A stretch of 36,905 nucleotides of DNA. Origin: an uncultured Candidatus Saccharibacteria bacterium (GTDB taxonomy: Bacteria > Patescibacteriota > Minisyncoccia > UBA6257 > UBA9933). A program made the position numbers and the translations under genes. The stretch covers positions 1 through 36,905 of the forward strand of contig CAZYZO010000001.1 in NCBI GenBank assembly GCA_964651905.1. Direction: 5' to 3'. The notes below the pieces were generated by a model, which saw nothing but the letters and a program-made list of their open reading frames with translations, was not told the origin of the DNA and searched no databases. Shown piece after piece: positions 2,725 through 34,544 of the stretch (position 1 is its first letter; every line of letters starts with the position of its first letter).

Positions 2725-2757
2725 ATAACCCGTCAGTTAGAATGGCGGGTTATTTTT
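2724..2757. terminator. hairpin between convergent genes (possible bidirectional terminator)
   Basis: ATAACCCG-13 nt-CGGGTTAT followed by TTTTTG. The right arm overlaps the radical SAM stop codon at 2750-2752. Confidence 0.45.
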
Positions 2758-4018
2758 GATAATTTTGATTTATGGGAAAAGATTCCCTATCCAATATATA
2801 CCTTAAGACGTCTTTAATAAATTGCCGAATCTCTTCACAACGATAACTTTTCGCGGTCAAGAAATTCTTCGACTCCATCACAGCTTTATTTGCGATACAG
2901 TCGCTGCAACAACTTACTGCTGCAAAACAATCAGAACATTCAGGAATATTCCGCACGCCGATTTTTTTAAGTTGCTGATAAACGTTGTTATCGAAAACAA
3001 AGGCGTTACGATTCGCATCGAATCTTCCATATATAAAATGCGAAGCGATTATATCTCGATTGTCTGTCATTCGATTACAACTTGTGCACCGTCCATCAGG
3101 CGTAATCATAAAATTTCGCCCCGCTACTCCGCAAAATTCAAAGCTTTTCTTTCCTAAATTAAGAACTGATGTCTTAAGTTTACAACCGAATTTTTCAGCA
3201 ATAGGCAATGCCTCTAAGAATTTCGTAAAAAATACCTTAGAGGACGGCATCGCGTATTTATTATTTCTCCCCCTTCCCATTGCAAAAAGCGGCTCATGTA
3301 ATTGTTTACAGTTAGGAAAGTTTTTGCCAAAAAAGTAAACTATATCTGGCAAATATTCAACACTATAGCTTGATATCGTCGAACGAAAAGCTACTTTTGT
3401 TGGTATCTGATTATAAAGCATTTTTGCAATCTCGAAAACCTGATCAAAACTATTGCTTCTATGAATGTCTTGAATCTCTTTAGGACCGTCAAACGAAATG
3501 CTGATGCCATCCATATTTCTCGCCAACCATTCGGCTTGTTTTAAACTCATACAACCATTAGTATTGATAGTTGCACGACTGCGACAACCAATTATCTCTG
3601 CTTTTTGACGTAGGTATCGCACCGCAGAAATTAGTATATCCCATGCTTGTGTTGGTTCTCCGCCAAACATATTGGCATAAATCAATCTCTTGCCAAATTT
3701 TTGAGCACAATCTGCAATATAATCAATAGTGGCAAAAATGACCTGTTCAGACATAAAAGTTTTCTTTTTCGGGCTTGCATTTTCGTAGCAATAAACACAA
3801 GCTAAATTACAATGATCGGTTAAAATTAAATTTGTCCCAAAGAATGTATAATCTGGAAGATTATCTTTTTGAAAAGCAAAATAAGGTTTATCACTCTCAA
3901 TAAAGTCAGTAATTTTCTCTGCTACTGTCGGGCTGACGCGATAAACCCTAGAAAGCGAAGGGACGAATACAATAACATTATCGCCATCTAATATCTTAAA
4001 AACCCTGTGCTGATACAT
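2750..4018 (-). CDS. radical SAM / SPASM-domain peptide maturase
   Basis: CNLACVYC (CX3CX2C) near residue 70. C-terminal SPASM-type cysteines: CGVAGRNFMITPDGRC, CSDCFAAVSCCSDC and a later RC. SD AAGGAGGG lies upstream of the ATG. Sits directly downstream of a Cys-rich small ORF. Confidence 0.9.
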   Translation of the reverse strand: MYQHRVFKILDGDNVIVFVPSLSRVYRVSPTVAEKITDFIESDKPYFAFQKDNLPDYTFFGTNLILTDHCNLACVYCYENASPKKKTFMSEQVIFATIDYIADCAQKFGKRLIYANMFGGEPTQAWDILISAVRYLRQKAEIIGCRSRATINTNGCMSLKQAEWLARNMDGISISFDGPKEIQDIHRSNSFDQVFEIAKMLYNQIPTKVAFRSTISSYSVEYLPDIVYFFGKNFPNCKQLHEPLFAMGRGRNNKYAMPSSKVFFTKFLEALPIAEKFGCKLKTSVLNLGKKSFEFCGVAGRNFMITPDGRCTSCNRMTDNRDIIASHFIYGRFDANRNAFVFDNNVYQQLKKIGVRNIPECSDCFAAVSCCSDCIANKAVMESKNFLTAKSYRCEEIRQFIKDVLRYILDRESFPINQNYQK

Positions 4019-4051
4019 GTTTTTACCCTCCTTTCAAGTTTTAAGGTTTGA

Positions 4052-4085
4052 TTCCGAAGGGACAACTAAAGTTGCCCCTTCGGAA
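4052..4085 (-). promoter_or_regulatory. intercistronic stem-loop between the precursor peptide and maturase genes
   Basis: TTCCGAAGGGACAAC-TAAA-GTTGCCCCTTCGGAA forms a 15-bp stem with one mismatch and a 4-nt loop. No strong U-tract follows on the minus strand. Confidence 0.6.
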
Positions 4086-4095
4086 ATATTTGATT

Positions 4096-4278
4096 TCATG
4101 CGCCGCTTGGACAAGTAACATCTGCGCAATCACCGCCGCAATCTCCATCACAGCCGTCAGTATCGCCACAGTCATCACTTCCACAGCCACCGATTGAATT
4201 AAAAACCGCGGCCTGATTAAAGCGACTATTTAGCTTGACGCTAGAAATCGCTATCTTCTCAAGTTCATTACTATCCAT
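4096..4278 (-). CDS. RiPP precursor peptide candidate (Cys/Asp/Gly-rich core, SCIFF/ranthipeptide-like)
   Basis: MDSNELEKIAISSVKLNSRFNQAAVFNSIGG|CGSDDCGDTDGCDGDCGGDCADVTCPSGA. AAGGAGGTGAAT precedes the ATG at 4278; the track's GTG start at 4284 overlaps the SD. The last 29 residues hold six Cys. Immediately 5' of the radical SAM/SPASM gene. Confidence 0.75.
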   Translation of the reverse strand: MDSNELEKIAISSVKLNSRFNQAAVFNSIGGCGSDDCGDTDGCDGDCGGDCADVTCPSGA

Positions 4279-4315
4279 ATTCACCTCCTTTTTTTCGGTT
4301 TTTTGTTAAAACTAC

Positions 4316-4344
4316 AATTTCTGTCTTCTACATTCACAGAAATT
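4316..4344 (-). promoter_or_regulatory. 5'-UTR hairpin of the precursor transcript
   Basis: AATTTCTGT-11 nt-ACAGAAATT (9-bp stem), between the predicted promoter and the SD. Confidence 0.35.
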
Positions 4345-4387
4345 TCTCTCTAATTGTTTTTTCAAGGTGCTATTTTATCTTAATTTT

Positions 4388-4416
4388 ACAATAGCAAGTC
4401 AATTAAAATTTGTCAA
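4388..4416 (-). promoter_or_regulatory. sigma70-like promoter for the precursor/maturase operon
   Basis: On the minus strand: TTGACA (4416-4411), 17-nt spacer, TATTGT (4393-4388), about 110 nt upstream of the precursor ATG. Confidence 0.5.
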
Positions 4417-4488
4417 ATTTCTAATATAGTTAATATAACCACACCTTATTCTAAATTTTAGAGGCGGAAAACCCGTCGTGTATAAACT

Positions 4489-4633
4489 GGCGGAGGGTGA
4501 AAGATTTTCAGGCGGGGCCCGCTATCGCACCCGCTTTTCATCTTGGCGGTGTGTCTCGGTCTAGAACCAAATTCTAGTAAGTTGTTGCAACATTCTTGAA
4601 AAGGGGCCATTTGAGATACTTCGGTCGCATTAT
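4489..4633. repeat. noncoding repeat element copy L2
   Basis: GGCGGAGGGTGAAAGATTTTC at 4489-4509 is a degenerate relative of 5298-5321. GCGGTGTGTCTCGGTCTAGAAC at 4546-4567 matches 659-680 at 21/22. Patchy similarity to L1 continues downstream (TTGTTGCAA vs TTGTGCAA; TTGAAAAGGGGCCATTT vs TTGAAGGTCATT). Confidence 0.45.
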
Positions 4634-5290
4634 CTAAAACGACTTAGCAATTCTTACAAATTCTTTTACTTTCTCAATGTCTTTTCCGTTTCCATCGGGA
4701 AGATCTGTTTTAGTTTTAGAATCAACTCCTGCGGGCATAACTTCCTTAATGGCCGCCTCCACATTTTCCGGGCCAAGGCCACCGGCCAAGATCACCGGCA
4801 TACTAACAGAATTAACGATTTTTTTACTTATCGTCCAATTATGCGTTTCGCCAGTCGCTCCGATTTGAAAATCTCCTTTTTTGCGGCTATCTAAAATAAG
4901 AAAATCTGCAATTCCTTCATATTTTTTAGCTAACCCCACGCTTTTCTCGTCTATGACCGGAATAGTTCTCATAATTTTAATCTGAGGATATTTTTCTTTT
5001 ATTTTTTTAACTGAATCAGGTAATAAAGATTCCGTAGATATGCCAAGTTGTAAAATATCGGGGTTAACCTTTTCTACTAATTCCGAGATTCTCCTTAGAT
5101 CAGAAGAAAGCGTGAGAGCAACCTTAGTGGTTTCACTAGGAAGAGAGTTAAAAATCTCTTTTACTCTATCATCGTCTAAACCTCTAGGGTCAACTTCTTT
5201 TCCTACTAGCACGCCAATAAAATCTACTCCTACTTCTATGAGTTTTTTAGCTTCTTCCGGATTTTGAACTTCGTAAATTTGAACAATCAT
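4634..5290 (-). CDS. trpF: phosphoribosylanthranilate isomerase-like protein
   Basis: From MIVQIYEV...: GATGETHNW, PVILAGGLGPENV and PAGVDSKTKTD...GKDIEKVKEF match the TrpF (beta/alpha)8 C-terminal signatures. I trimmed the 38 N-terminal codons of the track ORF because they read through a tRNA-like noncoding fragment. Confidence 0.75.
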   Translation of the reverse strand: MIVQIYEVQNPEEAKKLIEVGVDFIGVLVGKEVDPRGLDDDRVKEIFNSLPSETTKVALTLSSDLRRISELVEKVNPDILQLGISTESLLPDSVKKIKEKYPQIKIMRTIPVIDEKSVGLAKKYEGIADFLILDSRKKGDFQIGATGETHNWTISKKIVNSVSMPVILAGGLGPENVEAAIKEVMPAGVDSKTKTDLPDGNGKDIEKVKEFVRIAKSF

Positions 5291-5800: not shown

Positions 5801-5840
5801 CTGATTGACAAAAAGTATCATTTTTATCAAAATTAATTTA

Positions 5841-6782
5841 ATGTTATTAGACACTTATAAAAAAATGTTCCTTATTCGGACAACTGAAGAACAAATAGCC
5901 GCTTATTACCTTAAGAATAAGATAATGAGCCTCGTTCATTTCTATATTGGTCAGGAAGCGATAGCTGTGGGTGTCTGCGATGCATTACATAAAGATGATC
6001 GTGTGATAGGCAATCATCGATCACACGGACACTATCTGGCCAAAGGAGGAGATCTTAAGAAGATGATCTGTGAATTGTTTGGAAAGGAATATGGTTCGTC
6101 GCATGGCAAGGGTGGATCAATGCACATGATCGATACATCGGTTAATTTCATTGGGTCGACCCCAATCCTCTCAAGTGCTGTACCACTTTCCTGTGGTAGC
6201 GCATTTGAACAAAAGTACCACAAGAGTGGTACAGCAACAGTCGTGTTCTTAGGTGATGGTGCGTTTGAGGAAGGAGGTGTCTACGAATCTATGAATCTAG
6301 CGGCCCTTTTTAAGCTGCCGTTACTCGTCGTTCTTGAAAATAATTTCCGGTCCATTAACACGCGCCTTTGGGAACGGCGATCTGCAGCCCATAATACTAA
6401 AAAGATAGTTACTGGATTTGGAGTACGATATATAAGAGCCGATGGGAATGATTATTTAGACGTGGCAGTAAAGGTTAGAGAGCTTATCACCGAAGTACGC
6501 GCAGGTAAACCTGCTCTCATTGAGTGTATGACCTACCGTCACATGGCACACAGTGGGCCAACCTTTGAGGAAGAAACTCGTGAAGAGGATACAGCGGAAC
6601 AGCGAAAGGAGAAAGATTCAGTAGTAAAGATGAGACGAGAAACTCTCGCTTCAGGAGTCTCCGAAGAGGAAATTACTGCTACGGAAAATGATATTAAGAA
6701 AACCGTTACCAATGCTATCGTGTTTGCTGAGAAGGCACCTTTTCCAAAGAAAGAAAGTTTATACACCAACCTCTATGTCTAA
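5841..6782 (+). CDS. TPP-dependent 2-oxoacid dehydrogenase/decarboxylase E1 component, alpha subunit
   Basis: Typical E1-alpha layout: FYIGQEAIAVGV, GNHRSHGHYLAKG, GKGGSMH, VVFLGDGAFEEGGVYESMNLAALFKLPLLVVLENN (TPP-binding GDG...N), YRHMAHSGP. I prefer the ATG at 5841 over the TTG at 5805. Confidence 0.85.
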   Translation: MLLDTYKKMFLIRTTEEQIAAYYLKNKIMSLVHFYIGQEAIAVGVCDALHKDDRVIGNHRSHGHYLAKGGDLKKMICELFGKEYGSSHGKGGSMHMIDTSVNFIGSTPILSSAVPLSCGSAFEQKYHKSGTATVVFLGDGAFEEGGVYESMNLAALFKLPLLVVLENNFRSINTRLWERRSAAHNTKKIVTGFGVRYIRADGNDYLDVAVKVRELITEVRAGKPALIECMTYRHMAHSGPTFEEETREEDTAEQRKEKDSVVKMRRETLASGVSEEEITATENDIKKTVTNAIVFAEKAPFPKKESLYTNLYV

Positions 6783-7815
6783 TAGGATTATCACATACAC
6801 TGAAGCAATTAAAGAAGCCACGGACCAAATAATGGAGGTGGATCAGGACGTTGTTGTTATGGGTCTAGAAGTCTCATATAAAAACGGTGCAGACGGAACA
6901 ACAGCCGGACTTAAGGAAAAATATCCCTGCCGGATAATTGAAACGCCACAATCAGAAAATGCTGTAACAGGAATGGCAGTCGGCGCAGCTATAACAGGCC
7001 TTCATCCTATTGTGCACCACGGTAGGGTTGAGTTCGCAATCTTTGCGGCTGACCAGATATTTACACAGGCGGCGAAGTGGAATTATATGTTCGGCGGTGG
7101 ACATTCGGTTCCTGTTGTATTCAGGATCAATATTGGTCGACAATGGGGCCAGGGCCCGCAGCACACACAAGCGTTCTATTCGCTCTTTGGCAACACGCTT
7201 GGTCTTAAAGTTGTGATTCCCTCTACTCCGCGTATGGCGAAGGGTTTACTTATCTCTGCAATCCGTGACAAAAATCCCGTAGTTATCTTGGAACCACGCT
7301 GGCTTTTCTCTCTAAGACAGGATGTGCCAACCGAACTTTATGATAAACCACTCAATAAAGCTGTTATAATGAAAAAGGGCGCGGATCTTACAATTGTTTC
7401 TTATGGGGACGGTTTGATTGCGGCATATGAAGCTTTAGAGTTGATCAGTGGTCATGTTAATGCAGAACTTATAGATCTTGTTTCCATAAATCCAATAGAT
7501 TACGGAACTGTTTTAAAATCAGTAAAAAAAACTGGCCGACTTATCACAATTGATACCACCAATCACGCCTTTAGTATTGGCTCGGATGTTATCGCGAATA
7601 TTGCGGAACAGCAGTTGCTACACTTGAAGAATGCTCCAGTCTCACTTTCCTGTCCAGACGTTCCAGTCCCCACCTCAACCATACTCACTGAATCTTACTA
7701 TCCAACAAAAGTGGATATCGCAAACGTTGCGTTATGTCTGATGGGTAAGCCAACTATCAAGCGTGACTTAACTTTTGAAGAATTACACCTTGCCCCGAAT
7801 TTAGTTATAAAATAG
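6775..7815 (+). CDS. TPP-dependent 2-oxoacid dehydrogenase/decarboxylase E1 component, beta subunit
   Basis: MSNRIITYTEAIKEATDQIM..., ETPQSENAVTGMAVGAAITGLHP, VVILEPRWLF and a transketolase C-terminal-like end. The ATG at 6775 overlaps the alpha stop by 8 nt (ATGTCTAA). The track's upstream extension lies inside the alpha gene. Confidence 0.85.
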   Translation: MSNRIITYTEAIKEATDQIMEVDQDVVVMGLEVSYKNGADGTTAGLKEKYPCRIIETPQSENAVTGMAVGAAITGLHPIVHHGRVEFAIFAADQIFTQAAKWNYMFGGGHSVPVVFRINIGRQWGQGPQHTQAFYSLFGNTLGLKVVIPSTPRMAKGLLISAIRDKNPVVILEPRWLFSLRQDVPTELYDKPLNKAVIMKKGADLTIVSYGDGLIAAYEALELISGHVNAELIDLVSINPIDYGTVLKSVKKTGRLITIDTTNHAFSIGSDVIANIAEQQLLHLKNAPVSLSCPDVPVPTSTILTESYYPTKVDIANVALCLMGKPTIKRDLTFEELHLAPNLVIK

Positions 7816-7826
7816 CGGTGCTATAA

Positions 7827-8029
7827 ATAAAGGTACTTGTTACTAGCGGGACAGAATTTATTTGTTTCTACATCTGCGAGATTTCCCCGAAAAATACTTC
7901 AGTTGGAAAACTTCCAAGGAAGTATCGGATTCTAATGGTGAATATTGGAATGATACTATATCAGGAGCCATTCTGTTTACGAATACACTTGGTGCTCAAG
8001 ATATTGCCAGATTATTTGCCGAAGAATAA
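7827..8029 (+). pseudogene. decayed remnant of an NAD-dependent epimerase/dehydratase (SDR) gene
   Basis: ATA-AAG-GTA... reads (I)KVLVTSGTEFICFYICE, which resembles the canonical MKVLVTGGTGFIGSHLCE with the start and all Gly-motif positions mutated. A different frame ends ...EKYFSWKTSKEVSDSNGEYW...AQDIARLFAEE*, resembling an SDR C-terminus. About 200 nt remain of roughly 950 nt expected. Confidence 0.45.
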
Positions 8030-8131
8030 ATGAACCTTGTAGAAAACTATCCAATAAAGAATATTTTACAAAAATAATTGTGGTAATGGACTGTAGACCA
8101 AATTAAAGGCTTATAGTATGTTGATGTATAT

Positions 8132-9700
8132 ATGGTTTATAATAATAAACAAAAAATTATAAGAAATAAAAATCTTCCCAAATCCATACGATCTGTAGTA
8201 CGTATGTATCCATCTAATCAGGTCAATAGATTATTTTATGGTGGACTACCCCACCTAGGTAACACACTTTTGAACTCTTGGAAATCTACTGAGATACAAG
8301 AAGCGGCTAAGACGTATGATGATTACAGTCTTTCCTCGAATCTTCTTATAAAAGGCTTTAAGGATCCTGTAGTGGATAAAGTAAGATTAGGAATTGGAAG
8401 CCCTGCACGTTTTAAGCCTTTTGGTAGGTGTATTAAGAGTATAAAATATGCCTTGCAAAATAGAATACTTTCTGACTATCAATTAGCCGCGGGATATAGT
8501 GAGGACAAGGTACCCATCATAAAATACTTTAAAATTTCTCATGATTTAGAAATTACTGAAAATAATATTATTTTTACCCACTCAGGTACACAGGCGTTTA
8601 CCTTTGTTATGGAAGCAATACTGGATTATGGGGATGTGGTCATTATGACAGCCCCAAATTATGGACTTTTCGCCTTTATTCCAGAGAGGATCGGGGGTGA
8701 AGTTAGACTTTTACCGCTTACAAGTCTTAATGATTGGAAAATTAACCCGAAAGAACTTAAGCAACTTATTTTTAATACAAATAATGAACTTAAGCGAGAT
8801 TATGATATAAATCGTGGGAAATATGTTTTTAGACGCTCTGATGTGCCACCAAGAGTTTCTGCTTTTCTTAATTTAAATCCGCACAACCCAACGGGTGTTG
8901 TGTACAGTAAAAAGGACATATCGTTGTTGGTAGAAATTTCTAATATTTGCAATGAGGCTGGTGTATTTATTGTCGATGATTTGGCTTATTTTGGTCTAGA
9001 ATTTGATAGAAATTCTACCGCACTACCCATTTGTAGCTTAAAGGGGTATTTTAATAATACGATAACACTATATTCTCTTTCTAAATCTTACGGGTTGGCT
9101 GGCTTAAGGTCAGGTATGATTATTGCTAATGAGGTGATTATTTCTCTGATAAGAGATAAAATATTTCAGAGTTTGGATTCATTGTCTTTATTACAGTCGG
9201 CCGCTATGAGTGCGGTTTTCTTAATTGAGGATAATGCTCTTATAGAAAGAGAGAGGTACTTTACCGATATCACCAGGAAATATTATGAAAGGTATGTCTT
9301 TGTGAAAGCTATTATTATAGGGATTGATAAAATTAACAAAGAAGAAAGAATACTGCTCAACAAGATTATTCAAAACAACAAACTTATTTTTAATATTAAA
9401 AAATCTATGAGCGGTATCAGAGATGTTAGCATAGCACTTGAGCCAGAGTCGGGATTTTTTATACTCTTAGATCTAAGTAAATTACTTGGAAAATCTTATA
9501 AAGAATTTAAAATAATTGATGATATAACTTTGTTAAAATTTTTGTATACATCAGGTAATATTAAATTATTGACTGGCAGAGCATTTTGTTGGCCTAATCA
9601 GAGCCAGCTTACCGCAAGGGTAACTATCGCATTTGACAAATATGAAGATTTATTGAAATCTTTTTTACGCCTCAAATTATCCATAGAATCATTAGTATGA
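8132..9700 (+). CDS. PLP-dependent aminotransferase, class I/II
   Basis: 522 aa. NLNPHNPTG and the Schiff-base lysine motif YSLSKSYGLAGLRSG. Unusually long N-terminal extension and C-terminal inserts. Confidence 0.85.
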   Translation: MVYNNKQKIIRNKNLPKSIRSVVRMYPSNQVNRLFYGGLPHLGNTLLNSWKSTEIQEAAKTYDDYSLSSNLLIKGFKDPVVDKVRLGIGSPARFKPFGRCIKSIKYALQNRILSDYQLAAGYSEDKVPIIKYFKISHDLEITENNIIFTHSGTQAFTFVMEAILDYGDVVIMTAPNYGLFAFIPERIGGEVRLLPLTSLNDWKINPKELKQLIFNTNNELKRDYDINRGKYVFRRSDVPPRVSAFLNLNPHNPTGVVYSKKDISLLVEISNICNEAGVFIVDDLAYFGLEFDRNSTALPICSLKGYFNNTITLYSLSKSYGLAGLRSGMIIANEVIISLIRDKIFQSLDSLSLLQSAAMSAVFLIEDNALIERERYFTDITRKYYERYVFVKAIIIGIDKINKEERILLNKIIQNNKLIFNIKKSMSGIRDVSIALEPESGFFILLDLSKLLGKSYKEFKIIDDITLLKFLYTSGNIKLLTGRAFCWPNQSQLTARVTIAFDKYEDLLKSFLRLKLSIESLV

Positions 9701-10581
9701 AAATATATATTGCCTCATCAGAAAAGTATGTAGGAAAAATCCAAGAAGATGTTTATATACGCGACACCTATAGAAATAAAGGATTTTTTTGTGAAATCGT
9801 TACTCTGAAAAATATCGTAAAGATCTCAAAACCCTTTGATGGGGTAATTTTAAAAAGCGTCTGGGGGTATTATTTACACTATCAAGAATTTCTAAGGCAA
9901 TTATCAATACTCAGAAAAAAGAATATTAAACTAATAAACGACTATAATTTTATTTTTTGGAATATTGATAAGTATAAATACTTGTACGAATTAAAGCATA
10001 TGAATACAATTCCCACGACACTTCTTAGTTTTAAAAGTATTAAGAAGGTATTTGAGATTAGAAATATAATATTACAAATAAATAAAACATTAAACACGGA
10101 TACGTTGGTTATTAAACCCTGTATTTCAGAAAGCGGTTACTTAACCTTTAAATACGATAAAACAAAAAATAATAAGGCTATTATTGCTTTACTGCAACAA
10201 AATAAACAACTTAATTTTATTGCACAGCCCTACCGACCGGATATCTTGTCTGGAGAGTTATCTGTGGTCATAATTAATGGCATCTCCTTGTATGGCATTA
10301 AGAGATTTCCTGGAATTTTTAGTGAAAAATTAGATCCGATGTATATAAGGTTTATTAGCTTGCCGGGTGTAATAAAAAAAGAAGTAGACATATTAAAAAT
10401 ATTTTTCTTAAAGAAGTTTGGCGTTTTCCCTAATATATGCAGGGTTGACTTCTTAAAGATTGATACTGGTTATGAAATTTTAGAGGTAGAGTTAATAGAT
10501 CCTGATTTATTCTTTAGATACATACCTGATAGTATGAGAGAGAAAGCAACTTCCATGATTTATAAATCATTTGTTAAATAA
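9697..10581 (+). CDS. ATP-grasp-like protein (RimK/glutathione synthetase-like)
   Basis: FWNIDKYKYLYELK...IPTT followed by LVIKPCISESGY and FIAQPY...GELSVVIING, which matches the small ATP-grasp layout. ATGA overlap with the aminotransferase stop. Confidence 0.6.
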   Translation: MKIYIASSEKYVGKIQEDVYIRDTYRNKGFFCEIVTLKNIVKISKPFDGVILKSVWGYYLHYQEFLRQLSILRKKNIKLINDYNFIFWNIDKYKYLYELKHMNTIPTTLLSFKSIKKVFEIRNIILQINKTLNTDTLVIKPCISESGYLTFKYDKTKNNKAIIALLQQNKQLNFIAQPYRPDILSGELSVVIINGISLYGIKRFPGIFSEKLDPMYIRFISLPGVIKKEVDILKIFFLKKFGVFPNICRVDFLKIDTGYEILEVELIDPDLFFRYIPDSMREKATSMIYKSFVK

Positions 10582-10598
10582 TTAATTTTTATTAATCC

Positions 10599-11051
10599 AT
10601 GCTTAGAAAAGGAGTTTCAGTGCTTATCATCAACAAAAAGAACGAGTTTCTTTTAGTTAATTTAGAATCTTTTGAAAATAAGTATTTTGCAATCCCTGGC
10701 GGTGGAGTTGAACAGGAAGAAACATTAAAAGATGCGGCGTATAGAGAGTTAGATGAAGAGTTGGGAATCAAAGAAAAACATCTTCAAATCGTAGGTCAAA
10801 GTGATATACCTGTCAGATTCAAATTTAAAGTAATTAAGATGAACCGCGACGGTATTGAATATGATGGATCAGAGCGATATTTTTTTGGATTTAGATTTAT
10901 TGGCGATGAAAAAATGATAATTCCAAACCCTGGAGAGGTACGATCTTATAAGTGGGTTACATATAGCGAGTTAAAAAATTATTTACTCTTTGATAACCAG
11001 CTACAGGAAACGTTAGAAAAAATTAAAGAAATATTTTCTAACTTGTCATGA
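10599..11051 (+). CDS. Nudix hydrolase
   Basis: Complete Nudix box GGVEQEETLKDAAYRELDEELGI (GX5EX7REUXEEXGU). Confidence 0.85.
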   Translation: MLRKGVSVLIINKKNEFLLVNLESFENKYFAIPGGGVEQEETLKDAAYRELDEELGIKEKHLQIVGQSDIPVRFKFKVIKMNRDGIEYDGSERYFFGFRFIGDEKMIIPNPGEVRSYKWVTYSELKNYLLFDNQLQETLEKIKEIFSNLS

Positions 11052-12277
11052 TTAATAAACCGACACTTCTTTTTGTAGAGGAGTATGAGAATACGCTTTC
11101 AAGGAGTGTAGTGTCAAACAAAACCATTAGCTTAGTCTTAATTAGATTTAAGCAAAACATGTTCTTTAGTCAAAATCATCTCGACACAACCTCTAATATT
11201 CTTTGTTTTGTTTTTGACAAAGCGGAGTCCATAGAACATGAAGTTGATGAGTTCAAAAGATTCTGTGCCAAAAGTGGAATTGTAGTTAATTATTTCTATA
11301 ATGACTCCGAATACAACCAGGAGGTGATTCAGAAATTTGCCTCACTACTTAAACTTCCCGGCGCGTTGAATGAGTATCAAGCTCGCTGTGTAAGAGATAA
11401 AGCAGTAATGAAAGATAAACTTCATAAACTTGGATACCAAACAATGTTTTATCAAGAACTGACTTCCATTGATGATGCACTGGAATTCGCCGAAAAACAT
11501 GGAGGTTTTCCTTTTATCGTTAAGTGGCGTAGAGGGCTCTCATCGAAGGAAGTATATAGGATTGAAAGCAGGGGTCAGTTAGAGGCCCTTCAACTCGATT
11601 ATTCTACAAGGCGATTCATCGCGGAAACGTATTGTCCATACTTGATATGGAGTTTTGATTCTCTAGTGCAGGATGGCAAGGTTGTGGGAACTTTTCTAAC
11701 GTGGCTTCCATACACCAATCTAAGCTTCGCCGAGAAAAAAGAGAAGTTTGCTCAAATCACTGTTGCAGAACATCCGAAGAATATTAGATTCGATGGAGGA
11801 AAAATAACTCAGAACATAGTTAGTGAACTCGACCTGAAAAATGGATATATAGAAATAGAGTTCTTCGTTGATCTTCACGGACAACCTATTATCTGCGAAT
11901 TTGCATGGCGAACTGCCGGGGAGCACATATTGTCAAATCAAAGTCTAGCCTTTGGAGTAGATGTCTGTTCTTTATTAGTCGACATTATGGTTGGAAGAAA
12001 AATCCAACCGCTTCCACTAAATGGTCGACAATGCGTCGGCGACATGTTTCTACCATTAACCAATGGCGTCGTCACTCAAATTTCTTCCTATAAGGACCTA
12101 AGTGATCTTGATGGAGTAATCAATGGCAACATTACATGTAAAGTAGGAGATGTTATCGAGTTAAAAAGACAATACACAAGTTGTGCTGGCTGGATCCAAA
12201 TTACTGGAAAAACCGCGGACGAAGTCTTGAACAGAATGTTAAAGGTATACGAGAAGTTTGAAATTATAATAGTCTAG
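11048..12277 (+). CDS. ATP-grasp carboxylate-amine ligase (L-amino-acid-ligase-like)
   Basis: 409 aa. DKAVMKDKLHKLGY, FPFIVKWRRGLSSKEVYRIES, AETYC..., GYIEIEFFVD and EFAWRTAGE fit an ATP-grasp fold with a pre-ATP-grasp N-domain. ATGA overlap with the Nudix stop. Confidence 0.7.
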   Translation: MINKPTLLFVEEYENTLSRSVVSNKTISLVLIRFKQNMFFSQNHLDTTSNILCFVFDKAESIEHEVDEFKRFCAKSGIVVNYFYNDSEYNQEVIQKFASLLKLPGALNEYQARCVRDKAVMKDKLHKLGYQTMFYQELTSIDDALEFAEKHGGFPFIVKWRRGLSSKEVYRIESRGQLEALQLDYSTRRFIAETYCPYLIWSFDSLVQDGKVVGTFLTWLPYTNLSFAEKKEKFAQITVAEHPKNIRFDGGKITQNIVSELDLKNGYIEIEFFVDLHGQPIICEFAWRTAGEHILSNQSLAFGVDVCSLLVDIMVGRKIQPLPLNGRQCVGDMFLPLTNGVVTQISSYKDLSDLDGVINGNITCKVGDVIELKRQYTSCAGWIQITGKTADEVLNRMLKVYEKFEIIIV

Positions 12278-12322
12278 TACATTATTAATAAACTCTAGAA
12301 AAATATAATAATAAGGCCAAGT

Positions 12323-13216
12323 ATGAAAAAATTTAATAAAATAGTCATTATTGACACGGTTAAGATTACCGAGGAAGCGAAAGAAAAAATTCAACATTAT
12401 TCAAATGAGCGTGTTATTTATCCTGAATTTGACACAAAAAATGAAACGGAAATTTACCAAAGAATTAATAATGCCGACGCAGCCCTGGGTAATTGGCATT
12501 CAACAATAAATACTTCAATTTTAAAACATACCCCGAATCTTAAATATATTGGGATTTGCGGAACAAGTTTAGCGAATATTAATCTAGAAGCGGTAAGAAG
12601 GCACAATATAGTTATCAAAAACGTTACTGACTACGGCGATAATGGCGTGGCTGAATATATTTTTGCTCAACTACTTAATCTCTTTAGAGGATTCGGTAAA
12701 CACAGGTGGAGAAATGAGCCTAGTGAGCTTAATTCAAAAACAATTGGAATTATTGGTCTAGGAGCAATAGGGCAACAAGTTGCTAGAACAGCTTTAGGGT
12801 TTAAAATGAAAGTTTTATATTACAGTAAATCCAGAAAAACAGAGTGGGAGGAGAAAGGAGTTCAATATTCAACTATTGATGATTTGCTAAAAAAAAGTGA
12901 TATCATATCTATACATGTTCCTAAAAATACTAAGATCATCGGAAAAAATGAACTAGAAAAAATCGGTAATGGTAAGATTATAATCGACACCTGCTTAGGA
13001 GATATTTATAAAGATATTAATGCTGTTCGACTATGGCTTGGAAATGAAAATAATTTTTTAATAAGAGATCATCAGCCTGAAATAAAAGAAAAACTCGGTG
13101 ATTTGGAAAGATTTATATATACAGAAAATGTGATATCTGGAATAACGACAGAAGCCAGAGAAAAGCTAAGTACAAAGGTTATAGATAACATTGAAGATTA
13201 TCTAAAAAATAATTAA
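12323..13216 (+). CDS. D-isomer-specific 2-hydroxyacid dehydrogenase, NAD-binding
   Basis: KTIGIIGLGAIGQQVAR (GxGxxG), SDIISIHVP and the overall length and architecture of the family. Confidence 0.8.
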   Translation: MKKFNKIVIIDTVKITEEAKEKIQHYSNERVIYPEFDTKNETEIYQRINNADAALGNWHSTINTSILKHTPNLKYIGICGTSLANINLEAVRRHNIVIKNVTDYGDNGVAEYIFAQLLNLFRGFGKHRWRNEPSELNSKTIGIIGLGAIGQQVARTALGFKMKVLYYSKSRKTEWEEKGVQYSTIDDLLKKSDIISIHVPKNTKIIGKNELEKIGNGKIIIDTCLGDIYKDINAVRLWLGNENNFLIRDHQPEIKEKLGDLERFIYTENVISGITTEAREKLSTKVIDNIEDYLKNN

Positions 13217-31404: not shown

Positions 31405-33159
31405 CTATTCTAATTTCTCTATTTCTTTTTTGAGATATCCTTCCATTTTTTTGATATTTTCCTGCAGTCTTTTCCTCATAAATTCGTCGTCCGCCTCGGT
31501 AGGAGTTCCAATGGCTTGTTGTAATTTTTCTATGTCGTCTTGAATAAGTTTAAAGACTTTGGCTATGTCGGTTTTAACAACTAAAAGCCGCAGCGCTAAT
31601 TTTTCCTGCCGTTTTTTATAAAACCAAACTCCTCCGCCAAATCCTCCAGCTATTACTATAAGAAGAAATATCAAAATGCCTCCCATCCCAAGTTGGAATT
31701 TCCCAATCTGAATAATTGGCTTGCTTTTAATCCTCACTTTTGGAGATTCTATCGCAAGGCTCAATGCTCCTCGTTCATCTTGACTCTGAGCAATCAAAAT
31801 ATATTGTCCATTTCTAAAAGGCTGGTCAAAAGTAAATTCCCAGTTGCCCTTTTCATCCGAGTGAGCAGTGCCTTTCGCAATAATCTCTCCACCCTTTCGC
31901 AACACTTTCTGCGCCTTGAGTAATAATAATACATTAATATCAGGCAAGGCCGTCCCTTTCACTGTCAAAATCTGCTCTTCGCCAGAAAAGAGTTCATTGG
32001 TAACAAAAGTAATGATTGGAGAAGCAATGGGAAGAATTTCAATATCTAGGCTATTTTCAATGCTGTTTTCTGCCTGGTCAACAGCCTTCACAATTATTCT
32101 CCTCTCACCCGGGGCTTGAAGCGGCAATTTAAAGCTGCCAGTAAAATCAGCGTCGGGAATCAAGATAAGATCGCCGTCGCCAATTCTTATCTGATACTCT
32201 TTAAGGCCCGAGAGAGCATCTGAAGTCTTAAACTGTAGTGTGGGGACGGGATTATCAGTTTTTTTCCCTTCAAGAATATTTATTTCAAAACCAAGCGGTG
32301 GTTGGGTATCAATTGCCAAACGATAATGCGTCGTTGGCCCCCAGCCAAGATTATTTTGAAAACGGATATGAAGATACCAAGTGCCATCTTGCAACGCAAC
32401 AAAAGTTTTATTATCAAAAAGACCTTCGGACCATCCAGCTGGGATGGAGTTTGGATATTTATTAAGCGCAGTGCTCACGCCAAAAATATCAAGCGGTAAA
32501 TCCCAACTTGTCGTAAACTGCGCCACCAAATTATACCAGCGGTTTTCTTCGGGATAGAGCGGAATTTTAAGAACCGGCTTTAAAGGCAACTTCTCTGAAA
32601 GCGCGGCTTCCCGATCAATTTGTTTACTCTCCGGAATTTTAGGGGTAATTCTTTTTGGGACTACCGTAATCACTGCATCATTTATCTTTGATAGTATATT
32701 GGTCCCGCTTCCGTCAGCAGCAGTGATTGCGGCTTCCGTAAGCGAAAGTGTGCTAGTGCCGGTTCCTTTTGCCAGAAATTCTATTTTCAGAATTTTGACA
32801 GCGCCACCCGAAACTCCGTACGGAGTGCCGCCGGTAAATAATATAACGCCTTCGGTGTTGGAAAATTGAGGTTCTTCAAGCCAAAAGTTGAATGCAGATT
32901 CTACTTTATCTAATGCAGTCACTTCAAGCGTATCTTTGAAAAAACGAATTACTGCTTGGCCTGCGTTAAAACTTACCCCTTCGCTATCAACTCTAAGTTC
33001 AATCGTCATTTTTTCTCCGACCCCAATCTCGGAACTGGCAGGTGTCAAAGAAAATGTAGCGGCATGCACCGAAGAAAAAATACCCGAAACAATAATCCCG
33101 GCTAATATCACTATAGCAAACCAAAGATTTGATATATTTATTTTAAATTGATATTTCAT
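31405..33159 (-). CDS. membrane-anchored surface protein with N-terminal cohesin-like domain, Ig-like repeats, C-terminal TM and cytoplasmic coiled coil
   Basis: Signal/TM at the N-terminus. ATFSLTPASSEIGVGEKMTIELRVDSEGVSFNAGQAVIRF...LEV resembles a cohesin type-I domain. TM GGILIFLLIVIAGGFGGGVWFY lies near the C-terminus, followed by a charged helical tail. ATGA overlap with the upstream gene. Confidence 0.6.
   Translation of the reverse strand: MKYQFKINISNLWFAIVILAGIIVSGIFSSVHAATFSLTPASSEIGVGEKMTIELRVDSEGVSFNAGQAVIRFFKDTLEVTALDKVESAFNFWLEEPQFSNTEGVILFTGGTPYGVSGGAVKILKIEFLAKGTGTSTLSLTEAAITAADGSGTNILSKINDAVITVVPKRITPKIPESKQIDREAALSEKLPLKPVLKIPLYPEENRWYNLVAQFTTSWDLPLDIFGVSTALNKYPNSIPAGWSEGLFDNKTFVALQDGTWYLHIRFQNNLGWGPTTHYRLAIDTQPPLGFEINILEGKKTDNPVPTLQFKTSDALSGLKEYQIRIGDGDLILIPDADFTGSFKLPLQAPGERRIIVKAVDQAENSIENSLDIEILPIASPIITFVTNELFSGEEQILTVKGTALPDINVLLLLKAQKVLRKGGEIIAKGTAHSDEKGNWEFTFDQPFRNGQYILIAQSQDERGALSLAIESPKVRIKSKPIIQIGKFQLGMGGILIFLLIVIAGGFGGGVWFYKKRQEKLALRLLVVKTDIAKVFKLIQDDIEKLQQAIGTPTEADDEFMRKRLQENIKKMEGYLKKEIEKLE
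33112..33138 (+). repeat. REP-like palindromic repeat (copy K) embedded in the first codons of a CDS
   Basis: TATAGCAAACCAAAGATTTGATATATT. On the minus strand it encodes ...INISNLWFAIV of the 584-aa protein. Confidence 0.5.
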
Positions 33160-34544
33160 TTTCTAATAGTACGAATAAATATACTAAAATCTGAAATATT
33201 TATTTTCCCATCGTCGTTGAAATCAATTATTTTTTTCTGACTTTCATCTTTCAATCCCCAATTTGAAAGAAACATACTCCAATCTTTAATATTAACTACT
33301 CCATCACCGCTTAAATCAGTTTTGGGTAGTGTCAGGTGAGACACCACAAAAGTATTCGTGGGCGAGTAATCGCTTTCTCTCTTTTGTTGACTGGCTTGAC
33401 TGCGGTCAACCTGCTTTACCCGTACCTGATGAGTGCCGAATTCCAATATGCCGGTATCTACTGCCACCTTATACGACCCATCTTTTTCTACATTCGCTTC
33501 TTTTTTTATTATATCATCTATTTCAATAATAATAATATTAGTCGGAGAAGCGCTGCCAACAACGATAGCGGGTTGCCCTCGGCTAACCAGTCGTTGCAGA
33601 AGCCCAATAGTGGGTGGCACAAGAATATCTTTTACCACTAAGGCGTTCTCGATAACGCTAATAATAAAAAACTTCGTCTGGGTGGTACGATTATCCTTAT
33701 CCTTAATAAGGAGTCCAAAACTATGTAGCCCCTGCGAGATGCCGACGAAATTTACCTCAAAAGATCCATTCACGTCCGCGACAACATTTTGGCTTATCAC
33801 ATTCTCAAACATCGCTTGTTTATCGACGATGAATATTTTAGCATCCGGGAAAGCTCTTCCAGAAAATGTTACCGTGGTAGGTTTTCTCGCCCCGCCGCCG
33901 CCTCTACCAGACGGAATTGGTCCTGATTCCGATTGAGTTATTAGAGACGGACACTCATCATAATTATTAAAGGCGGTTCCGTTGTTAGTGAGTCTAAAGC
34001 TGTAGGTGGTTCCCGCTGCAACACTACCGGCAGCTTGCAAAGACCACTCGTATTCCGTGTAATCATTTTTAACTAAAGTTGAAGAAGAAGCCGGATTGTT
34101 TAAATCCAGAATTTGTCCAGGAACAAAAGAGCCAGTCGTGATTTGGTTGGTGGTAATATCACCATCACTGAAATTGTCCGATAAACGAAGACTAAAAGTA
34201 TCGCTCGTTGGAGTAATGGCTGTCCAACTGCCAGTAGTACAATCAGTACCCTGTTTAAACTCAAAACAAGGAATAAGGGTACCATCCTCATCAGTAACCC
34301 TGATGCCGAAACGCAATCTAAAAGCAGTTCCGGGGACAACACTAGTAATACTTGTATTTTTATCTTTATCTTTATCCAGGGAACCATAACCAGTGGCCGA
34401 AATTTCTGTGCCATCATCATCTATAAACGTAAAATCTGTCTGATTCCAAACTGTTTCTTTTTCTTTGGCTAATGCAAAAATCGGAAACAAAAACAGAACC
34501 AACGCCAAAACCAACAATGAAGAACGTATATATTGAAATTTCAT
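33156..34544 (-). CDS. secreted protein with C-terminal dockerin-like module
   Basis: Signal peptide. Gly-rich linker SGRGGGGARKP. The C-terminal duplicated Ca-binding segments DLSGDGVVNIKDWSMFLSNW and DFNDDGKINISDFSIFIRTI match the dockerin type-I repeat pattern. Confidence 0.7.
   Translation of the reverse strand: MKFQYIRSSLLVLALVLFLFPIFALAKEKETVWNQTDFTFIDDDGTEISATGYGSLDKDKDKNTSITSVVPGTAFRLRFGIRVTDEDGTLIPCFEFKQGTDCTTGSWTAITPTSDTFSLRLSDNFSDGDITTNQITTGSFVPGQILDLNNPASSSTLVKNDYTEYEWSLQAAGSVAAGTTYSFRLTNNGTAFNNYDECPSLITQSESGPIPSGRGGGGARKPTTVTFSGRAFPDAKIFIVDKQAMFENVISQNVVADVNGSFEVNFVGISQGLHSFGLLIKDKDNRTTQTKFFIISVIENALVVKDILVPPTIGLLQRLVSRGQPAIVVGSASPTNIIIIEIDDIIKKEANVEKDGSYKVAVDTGILEFGTHQVRVKQVDRSQASQQKRESDYSPTNTFVVSHLTLPKTDLSGDGVVNIKDWSMFLSNWGLKDESQKKIIDFNDDGKINISDFSIFIRTIRK

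Follow-up and report, generated by a model that had tools for sequence, protein, structure and literature searches.

We analyzed a 36,905-nucleotide (nt) stretch of DNA from an uncultured Candidatus Saccharibacteria bacterium (contig CAZYZO010000001.1) and refer to this whole stretch as the window. On its reverse strand, a small gene for a Cys- and Asp-rich peptide is followed directly by a gene for a radical S-adenosylmethionine (SAM)/SPASM enzyme (rSAM). A first-pass annotation had read this pair as a cassette for a peptide that is ribosomally synthesized and then modified post-translationally (RiPP), similar to the SCIFF ranthipeptides, in a host resembling bacteria of the candidate phyla radiation (CPR). 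Our analysis indicates that the two genes very probably do form an rSAM-modified RiPP cassette. This cassette appears to represent a new, unnamed rSAM/SPASM family centered on CPR/Patescibacteria, most likely a thioether-forming one, that is neither SCIFF nor PapB-family.

The peptide gene (4096-4278, - strand) codes for a putative precursor, MDSNELEKIAISSVKLNSRFNQAAVFNSIGGCGSDDCGDTDGCDGDCGGDCADVTCPSGA, with a leader of ~31 amino acids (aa) and a 29-aa core, CGSDDCGDTDGCDGDCGGDCADVTCPSGA. The product is 60 aa long when counted from the ATG and 62 aa if a GTG within the Shine-Dalgarno (SD) sequence is used. Its leader carries the motif ELEKIA..V.L. Direct reading of the C-terminal 29 residues gives 6 Cys and 8 Asp, with Asp in each inter-Cys gap; downstream of five of the six Cys, an Asp follows at a distance of 1-4 residues. 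The peptide ranks first in Cys/acid richness among the 1012 stop-to-stop segments of the window. A strong SD, AGGAGG (4284-4289, -), lies 5 nt ahead of the ATG and is kept in L085, an 85%-identical relative. A sigma-70-like promoter, TTGACA-17-TATTGT (4388-4416, -), lies ~100 nt upstream of the SD. This promoter is a sequence match only (10 of 12 positions, with a TG-extended -10 element); its position is not kept in L085, and this AT-rich region shows no general excess of promoter-like sites (5 found, 6.5 expected). The small open reading frame (ORF), the SD, the promoter-like sequence, the six Cys and the Asp residues between them had all been described in the first-pass annotation, and our reading of the sequence confirmed each of them.

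Comparison with L085 shows how the small ORF has changed. Between the two precursor genes, 36 codons are identical, 15 differ only synonymously and 9 carry replacements; a single in-frame 9-nt indel adds a Cys unit. The synonymous bias and the in-frame indel thus indicate that the ORF is a real coding sequence under selection, with a purifying pattern of substitution. We considered the explanation that the small ORF is a chance reading frame and that the rSAM acts on something else. The ORF is left uncalled as a gene in several public assemblies (for example, at locus L081), which would fit such an explanation, but it is kept with a common leader and core motif in more than 20 loci, is preceded by a strong SD and has a composition that is unique within the window. 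Multi-locus conservation, shared motifs and the codon pattern relative to L085 effectively refute the chance-frame explanation, and we give it next to no weight. Separately, a 101-aa form of the precursor is encoded on a 651-nt ENA contig (P0041). It matches the L085 peptide exactly, is 81% identical to that of the window and runs on beyond ...CPSGA into 38 unrelated residues. This extension is probably a read-through or an assembly or gene-calling artifact.

The rSAM gene (2750-4018, -) starts 77 nt downstream of the precursor stop, has its own AAGGAGGG and codes for a 422-aa protein. Its CX3CX2C SAM-cluster motif (C70-x3-C74-x2-C77) is invariant in an alignment of 31 sequences, as are seven further Cys (C296, C314, C361, C364, C370, C374 and C394). 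Together these ten invariant residues include a SPASM pattern of the form C-x17-C...CX2CX5CX3C...C, so the claim of a full SPASM cysteine set held up. The Pfam model Radical_SAM (PF04055) matched with 57.8 bits (cutoff 29.5; 2e-15), and the Pfam SPASM model stayed below its threshold (14.3 vs 21.5 bits). A short N-terminal domain (approximately residues 1-58) is beta-rich in the structural model described below and has conserved residues F7, P20 and L22. At residues 370-372 (window 2905-2913) the window enzyme reads C-C-S-D-C where 26 relatives have C-[RK]-G-D-C. The resulting extra Cys, beside a cluster ligand in the CX5CX3C part of the SPASM motif, is specific to the window rSAM.

The two genes are separated by a 15-bp perfect RNA hairpin (4052-4085, -; -28.7 kcal/mol, z -5.35), giving the order precursor stop, hairpin, second SD and rSAM start. 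We folded the spacers of 16 loci, covering window 4052-4085 and spacers from L081, L085, L090-L121 and L001. A GC-rich hairpin directly follows the precursor stop in 15 of the 16, with z between -2.2 and -8.1 in 14; the exception is L113, where the spacer is 25 nt. The hairpin sequence varies from locus to locus, but its location and fold are maintained. The stems of the window and L085 differ by three double compensatory changes (C-G to U-A, A-U to G-C and G-C to A-U). The window hairpin has no clear U-tract, and a terminator scan found no canonical terminator there. Hairpin arrangements of this kind are known from other peptide operons. The intercistronic hairpin is probably an attenuator or transcript stabilizer that would raise the precursor:enzyme ratio.

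Conservation of the precursor-enzyme pair

We searched for homologs of the rSAM and read their neighborhoods, taken from a metagenome scan, a genome scan and exact look-ups, in six frames. A search of a 5.8-billion-protein collection recovered 39 rSAM homologs, the named ones coming from Candidatus Nomurabacteria, Minisyncoccia and metagenome-assembled genomes (MAGs) labeled 'bacterium'. The size of the family is probably underestimated because this first search uses a word index. Genome contigs were also scanned with generic cysteine-motif patterns; among the matches listed, the relatives were all at or below 35% identity and mostly belonged to other rSAM families. Searching with the precursor recovered only the window's own peptide and one relative. 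Because many assemblies leave the gene uncalled and its product is small and of biased composition, further precursors had to be sought by scanning rSAM neighborhoods in six frames.

The precursor-rSAM pair is kept in more than 20 distinct metagenomic or MAG loci, with rSAM identities of 31-85%. The hosts that carry a name belong to Nomurabacteria, Minisyncoccia and Berkelbacteria. The closest relatives with names are CPR bacteria, in agreement with the earlier view of the host, and our CPR assignment is based on these nearest homologs and on low G+C. At most loci, a Cys/Asp/Gly-rich small ORF ends 5-151 nt upstream of the rSAM gene on the same strand. L102 and L117 have such an ORF within ~2 kb of the rSAM gene instead of directly upstream, and at L118 the precursor ORF is interrupted by the end of the contig. 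The small ORF therefore stays beside the enzyme in relatives, and the proposal of a two-gene precursor and maturase cassette was borne out.

We compared 21 distinct precursors, 20 of which were aligned. Their leaders (18-34 aa) share the motif [DE]LExhA..V.h, and their cores (18-54 aa) contain 4-8 Cys. Asp, Cys and Gly make up 23%, 21% and 19% of core residues, respectively, or 63% together. A unit of the form C-x-G-D-(0 or 3 aa)-C-G is conserved in the core and appears as 'CDGDCG' or 'CxGDxDSCG'. Asp is most enriched at the third position after Cys (48% vs a background of 23%) and stands at background, 23%, at the fourth. The recurrent element of the core is therefore Cys-X2-Asp. The first-pass annotation had taken the leader-GG-CG layout of the window peptide as a SCIFF-like sign. 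We found the GG ahead of the core only in the window peptide, and it is not a feature of the family.

None of the precursors, from the window or from its relatives, matches any Pfam or NCBIfam model. The SCIFF precursor model (TIGR03973), which had been suggested as a check, gave zero matches to the window peptide at E up to 1 and none to 20 relatives. The best match of an NCBIfam precursor model among these 20 was to Clo7bot (E 0.058), in a single peptide.

Distant relatives of the rSAM (27-35% identity) have long Cys-rich repeat peptides with CxxDC or CxCDxxC units encoded downstream, not upstream, of the enzyme. These genes (L002 5209-5487; L003 5100-5342; L004 5145-5429; L006 2703-3107) come from another Patescibacteria MAG, two DPANN archaeal MAGs and a Desulfobulbaceae MAG. 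In addition to CxxD repeats, the L002 peptide keeps the leader motif of the family, in the form LEEL..SV.F. The repeat peptides and the L002 leader motif point to a wider superfamily.

Relationship to known peptide maturases

We scored the rSAM against NCBIfam models and their curated cutoffs. The best match was PapB (NF047865; 90.4 bits, cutoff 340), followed by the SCIFF maturase (TIGR03974; 86.5 bits, cutoff 425), an ScfB-related orphan (74 bits, cutoff 855), the nif11-type model (73 bits, cutoff 518.7) and QhpD (TIGR03906; 72 bits, cutoff 453), which is among the top five matches. CefB (67 bits, cutoff 600) and the anaerobic sulfatase-maturing enzyme (anSME; TIGR03942; 42 bits, cutoff 349) scored lower. 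PapB was the top NCBIfam match for all 27 family rSAMs scored, with 135 bits at most and a best E of 8.7e-40, far under the cutoff. Since these scores lie far below all curated cutoffs, function cannot be transferred by homology.

An AlphaFold2 (AF2) model of the rSAM (pLDDT 88, pTM 0.87) was compared with solved structures. The closest fold in the PDB is the thioether synthase CteB (E 3.5e-20, TM 0.74), which bears a RiPP recognition element (RRE) and aligns over the full length, the N-terminal domain included. anSME, ChlB, TigE and SuiB follow; SkfB is also listed, EpeE is low in the list and PqqE is 28th. In a PDB sequence-profile search, CteB was again the best match (5e-33, mainly over the N-terminal half), and anSME matched over the full length. 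Alignment to anSME showed that the rSAM has no counterpart of Cys261, the extra ligand of auxiliary cluster I. This absence predicts three protein ligands on that cluster, as in CteB. Two [4Fe-4S] clusters that share only seven conserved Cys should leave one iron open, and we infer that auxiliary cluster I of the rSAM has an open iron site, as in CteB.

The anSME comparison bears on the possibility that the rSAM performs a modification without cross-linking, such as an anSME-like oxidation of Cys to formylglycine or an epimerization. The full-length alignment with the anSME structure would allow for the first, and the presence of the epimerase EpeE in the fold list, though low, for the second. 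However, the anSME score of 42 bits is far from 349, the additional Cys by which anSME achieves full ligation of auxiliary cluster I is missing from the family, no sulfatase is present among the Pfam-annotated neighboring genes, and the substrate is a dedicated Cys-rich peptide. We rejected the anSME assignment on the score and the missing Cys261 counterpart, and we consider modification without cross-linking very improbable. A grouping with anaerobic sulfatase-maturing or cofactor enzymes, together with a small ORF that is not conserved, had been named at the outset as the finding that would count against a RiPP cassette; the enzyme does not group in this way, and the ORF is conserved.

The cassette resembles the SCIFF system CteA-CteB (thermocellin; TIGR03973, TIGR03974; PDB 5WGG/5WHY) in several ways. 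CteB is the nearest solved structure, both enzymes have seven SPASM Cys and what looks like an open site on auxiliary cluster I, and in both systems a short precursor with about six Cys is encoded directly upstream. In contrast to SCIFF systems, the window family has no conserved GG-CGxC, its cores are Asp/Gly-rich rather than Thr/Ser/Gln-rich, and its hosts are not Clostridia. We excluded SCIFF membership because the precursor model was unmatched, the maturase falls well short of its cutoff and relatives do not keep the GG-CG layout.

The resemblance to PapB and its substrate PapA (freyrasin) lies in an rSAM/SPASM enzyme paired with a precursor that contains repeated Cys...Asp units. PapB connects the sulfur of Cys with the beta-carbon of Asp in six Cys-X3-Asp motifs, and spacings of Cys-Xn-Asp from n = 0 to n = 6 are tolerated (PMC9413430). 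Before the C-S bond is made, the Cys or selenocysteine of the substrate binds an auxiliary-cluster iron, as found for PapB and Tte1186 (PMC10177961). Unlike PapB, the window enzyme has an extra N-terminal domain of ~60 aa that lies outside the 330-position PapB model. Its precursors are unrelated to PapA in sequence, and they are dominated by Cys-X2-Asp in the Asp/Cys/Gly-rich cores described above rather than by Cys-X3-Asp. The window family is also found in CPR hosts, with adjacent HExxH, S41 or M16 genes. Because the score, the precursor and the Cys-Asp spacing all differ, we excluded membership of the PapB family. The first-pass comparison with ranthipeptides thus stood in part: the freyrasin-type lead is the best available, given the PapB matches and the Asp peak after Cys, whereas the kinship with SCIFF was not supported.

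Two other kinds of system invite comparison. QhpD is an rSAM/SPASM enzyme that, according to Nakai et al. in 2015, reportedly forms Cys-to-Asp/Glu thioethers. Its substrate is an enzyme subunit (the gamma-subunit of quinohemoprotein amine dehydrogenase) encoded in the qhp operon, and no such genes are present at the window cassette. Several pairs known from NCBIfam only (CefB 'Cys-every-fifth', CcpM, CXXX-repeat, TIGR04463 and Clo7bot) likewise place an rSAM/SPASM gene by a short Cys-rich peptide, and most of them are, to our knowledge, defined by bioinformatics alone. The window rSAM falls far below their cutoffs, and their descriptions mention neither an Asp/Gly-rich core nor HExxH partners.

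Judged by sequence, the cassette works like thioether-forming SPASM maturases. We put a Cys-to-Asp thioether as the modification at just short of an even chance. The same RiPP logic could serve another cross-link, either of the sactionine type (Cys sulfur to an alpha-carbon, for example of the conserved Gly) or a thioether to residues other than Asp, with Asp present for solubility or metal binding. The Gly of the C-x-G-D unit is invariant, the sactipeptide maturase models StsB and RumMC matched at a similar weak level, and SkfB is among the fold matches. However, every member of the family ranks the sactisynthase models below PapB, the SCIFF maturase and QhpD, and the position relative to Cys is most skewed for Asp, not Gly. 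We consider such an alternative cross-link unlikely.

Peptidase-type genes and other neighbors

Facing the rSAM gene, the window encodes a 340-aa protein with an HExxH+E signature (1702-2724, +), a putative zinc metallopeptidase of an undescribed family and a candidate leader peptidase. Homologs of this gene are convergent with rSAM in 15 loci, a Berkelbacteria MAG included. A profile search of 1.84 billion representatives (50% library) found 533 relatives, 151 of them at E <=1e-30. In 43 diverse homologs, H208, E209, H212 and E250 alone are invariant, forming an HExxH...E signature of the gluzincin kind. In the AF2 model (pLDDT 85), three strands form a sheet that precedes the helix bearing the motif. 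The protein matched no Pfam or NCBIfam model, a profile search of the PDB returned nothing significant, and the same was true of Foldseek (best E 0.9), whose weak top matches were M32 and M1 zinc peptidases, including the lanthipeptide peptidase EryP. Sub-threshold profile matches are also to zinc peptidases (SprT-like, reprolysin, DUF2268, proabylysin and Wss1). A reverse search starting from the HExxH protein alone led to rSAM/SPASM genes and Cys/Asp-rich small ORFs at both of the two loci found.

An HExxH, S41 or M16 gene adjoins the pair at every locus with enough flank. At loci without the 340-aa HExxH gene, the pair is followed on the same strand by Peptidase_S41 (L090, L093-L100 and L163) or by Peptidase_M16 (L106-L109, L111, L114, L117 and L164). 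Three unrelated peptidase types in the same place form the pattern expected for a leader-removal step, and we regard these neighbors as putative leader peptidases. Several loci have further nearby HExxH proteins of other subtypes. The most extensive arrangement is a single-strand run at L164 (5544-11846) of precursor, rSAM, Peptidase_M16 and four HExxH proteins (222, 230, 274 and 335 aa), the last of which belongs to the 340-aa family (1.5e-43). In the window, a second HExxH protein of 235 aa (IIHEIMH; 909-1616, +) may be part of the cassette as a tentative metallopeptidase-like component. In a profile comparison it aligns locally with the 340-aa family, in the region of the active site (probability 58%), and it is weakly similar (E 0.003) to the 230-aa HExxH gene of L164. 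We found no family match for it and no counterpart in loci other than L164.

The neighborhood also bears on a different kind of product. Instead of yielding a multi-bridged secreted peptide, the precursor could give rise to a small metal-binding or redox-active molecule, metallophore-like or cofactor-like in the way of PQQ or mycofactocin, in which the rSAM makes one key bond in a C-x-G-D...C-G unit and the many peptidases trim the rest. In keeping with this, real conservation is confined to one short motif (CDGDCG or CxGDxDSCG), with core length varying and Cys number ranging from 4 to 8. PqqF is the second-best NCBIfam match of the M16 neighbor, up to five peptidase-like genes occur in one operon, and no transporter is conserved. 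Retention of the cassette across many reduced genomes would suit a housekeeping role, and the Cys/Asp-rich composition fits metal ligation. However, PqqE and mycofactocin-type models are not among the better matches of the rSAM, with PqqE ranking only 28th by fold, and the Pfam-annotated neighbors include no PqqB/C/D or MftB/D/E/F. The multiple repeated Cys-X2-Asp units also resemble multi-site substrates, as in PapA. We judge such a metal-binding or cofactor-type product to be quite improbable.

Other features of the window lie around the cassette. A hairpin flanked by an A-run and a T-run (2725-2753; z -5.6) is positioned between the convergent rSAM and HExxH genes and resembles a bidirectional terminator. 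It was missed by the terminator scan, and we suspect that its loop is too long for the criteria of the scan. Upstream of the precursor promoter, between it and a PRAI-like gene, lies a ~190-nt G+C-rich non-coding stretch (4440-4633) in this otherwise AT-rich genome; for 4440-4635, neither an Rfam match (E up to 1) nor a folding signal was found on either strand. A same-strand run across from the cassette (5805-13216, +) encodes E1 dehydrogenase alpha- and beta-like subunits, a class I/II aminotransferase, two ATP-grasp ligases (one GSH-S_ATP-like and one L-amino-acid-ligase-like), a NUDIX protein and a D-2-hydroxyacid dehydrogenase, and may represent a small-molecule or dipeptide pathway. Large secreted-type proteins are encoded in the window (31405-34544, -) and by the cassette in some relatives (L163 8237-11479 and L093 435-1739). 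They contain Big/Ig-like domains with dockerin or BNR domains with Por_Secre_tail, and no link to the cassette was established.

Proposed pathway and significance

The sequences and models establish which genes are conserved together, their motifs, the hairpin, the fold and the cluster ligands. We infer leader binding, the thioether chemistry, its acceptor atom, the role of the peptidases and the fate and function of the product in the following model. The 60-aa precursor would be transcribed from its own promoter. The hairpin past its stop codon would pass only part of the transcripts into the maturase gene, or would stabilize a short transcript, leaving precursor in excess of enzyme. The [DE]LExhA..V.h leader would dock on the short beta-rich N-terminal domain of the rSAM/SPASM enzyme. 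SAM would be cleaved at the CX3CX2C cluster, and the 5'-deoxyadenosyl radical would take a hydrogen from an acceptor residue in the core while the thiolate of a core Cys sits on the open iron of auxiliary cluster I. Intramolecular thioether (S-C) bridges would then form, most likely with the Asp beta-carbon of Cys-X2-Asp units as the acceptor, and the cycle would be repeated along these units. The leader would finally be removed by the neighboring zinc-peptidase-like HExxH protein or proteins, and by an S41 or M16 peptidase in other lineages.

Several observations weigh against parts of this model. The Cys-X2-Asp spacing is not the Cys-X3-Asp of PapA, and Gly, which is as conserved as Asp in the C-x-G-D unit, could be the acceptor. 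The rSAM falls under every curated family cutoff by a wide margin, and a Pfam search of its short N-terminal domain found no PqqD/RRE match. On the peptidase side, neither structural nor profile searches with the HExxH protein gave a significant match to a known peptidase, and its gene in the window is convergent with rSAM and not co-transcribed with it. The peptidase-like genes of the L164 operon, up to five in number, exceed what leader removal needs, and the absence of a conserved transporter at cassette loci also tells against the model. Weighing these points, we hold that a combination of an rSAM-modified RiPP cassette, Cys-to-Asp thioethers and leader-removing peptidases has somewhat better than an even chance of being correct.

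The adjacent HExxH, S41 and M16 genes, the conserved intercistronic hairpin and the Cys-X2-Asp periodicity, unlike the Cys-X3-Asp of PapA, go beyond what the first-pass annotation had noted. No Pfam or NCBIfam model covers the precursor or its HExxH partner. Standard annotation therefore misses the precursor and labels the enzyme merely a 'radical SAM protein'. In full-text searches of the literature, we found no description of such a family in CPR/Patescibacteria. The genomes of these bacteria are tiny, and biosynthetic clusters are usually reported as few or absent in surveys of them; one study recorded none in its Patescibacteria MAGs (PMC11613949). The cassette described here is a probable RiPP system that several CPR lineages retain, in bacteria thought to produce few natural products. 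It offers a candidate new substrate class for rSAM thioether chemistry, in which Cys-X2-Asp units are set in a scaffold of Asp, Gly and Cys only, and a new candidate family of leader peptidases with more than 500 representatives. As a compact system of two to four genes, it is open to heterologous expression even though its hosts are unculturable.

A broader and more speculative proposal, which we think unlikely, is that the product of the cassette is a metal-binding peptide, thioether-caged and Asp/Cys-rich, or else a small cofactor derived from a peptide. The cassette would be a lineage-wide trait of CPR/Patescibacteria, with relatives in DPANN archaea, and its product would be matured by a co-diversified and previously unrecognized family of zinc-peptidase-like HExxH proteins. 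If this were true, the cassette would serve ultra-small, episymbiotic cells as a conserved physiological tool, either for acquiring metal or for interacting with a host, and would not be a sporadic antibiotic.

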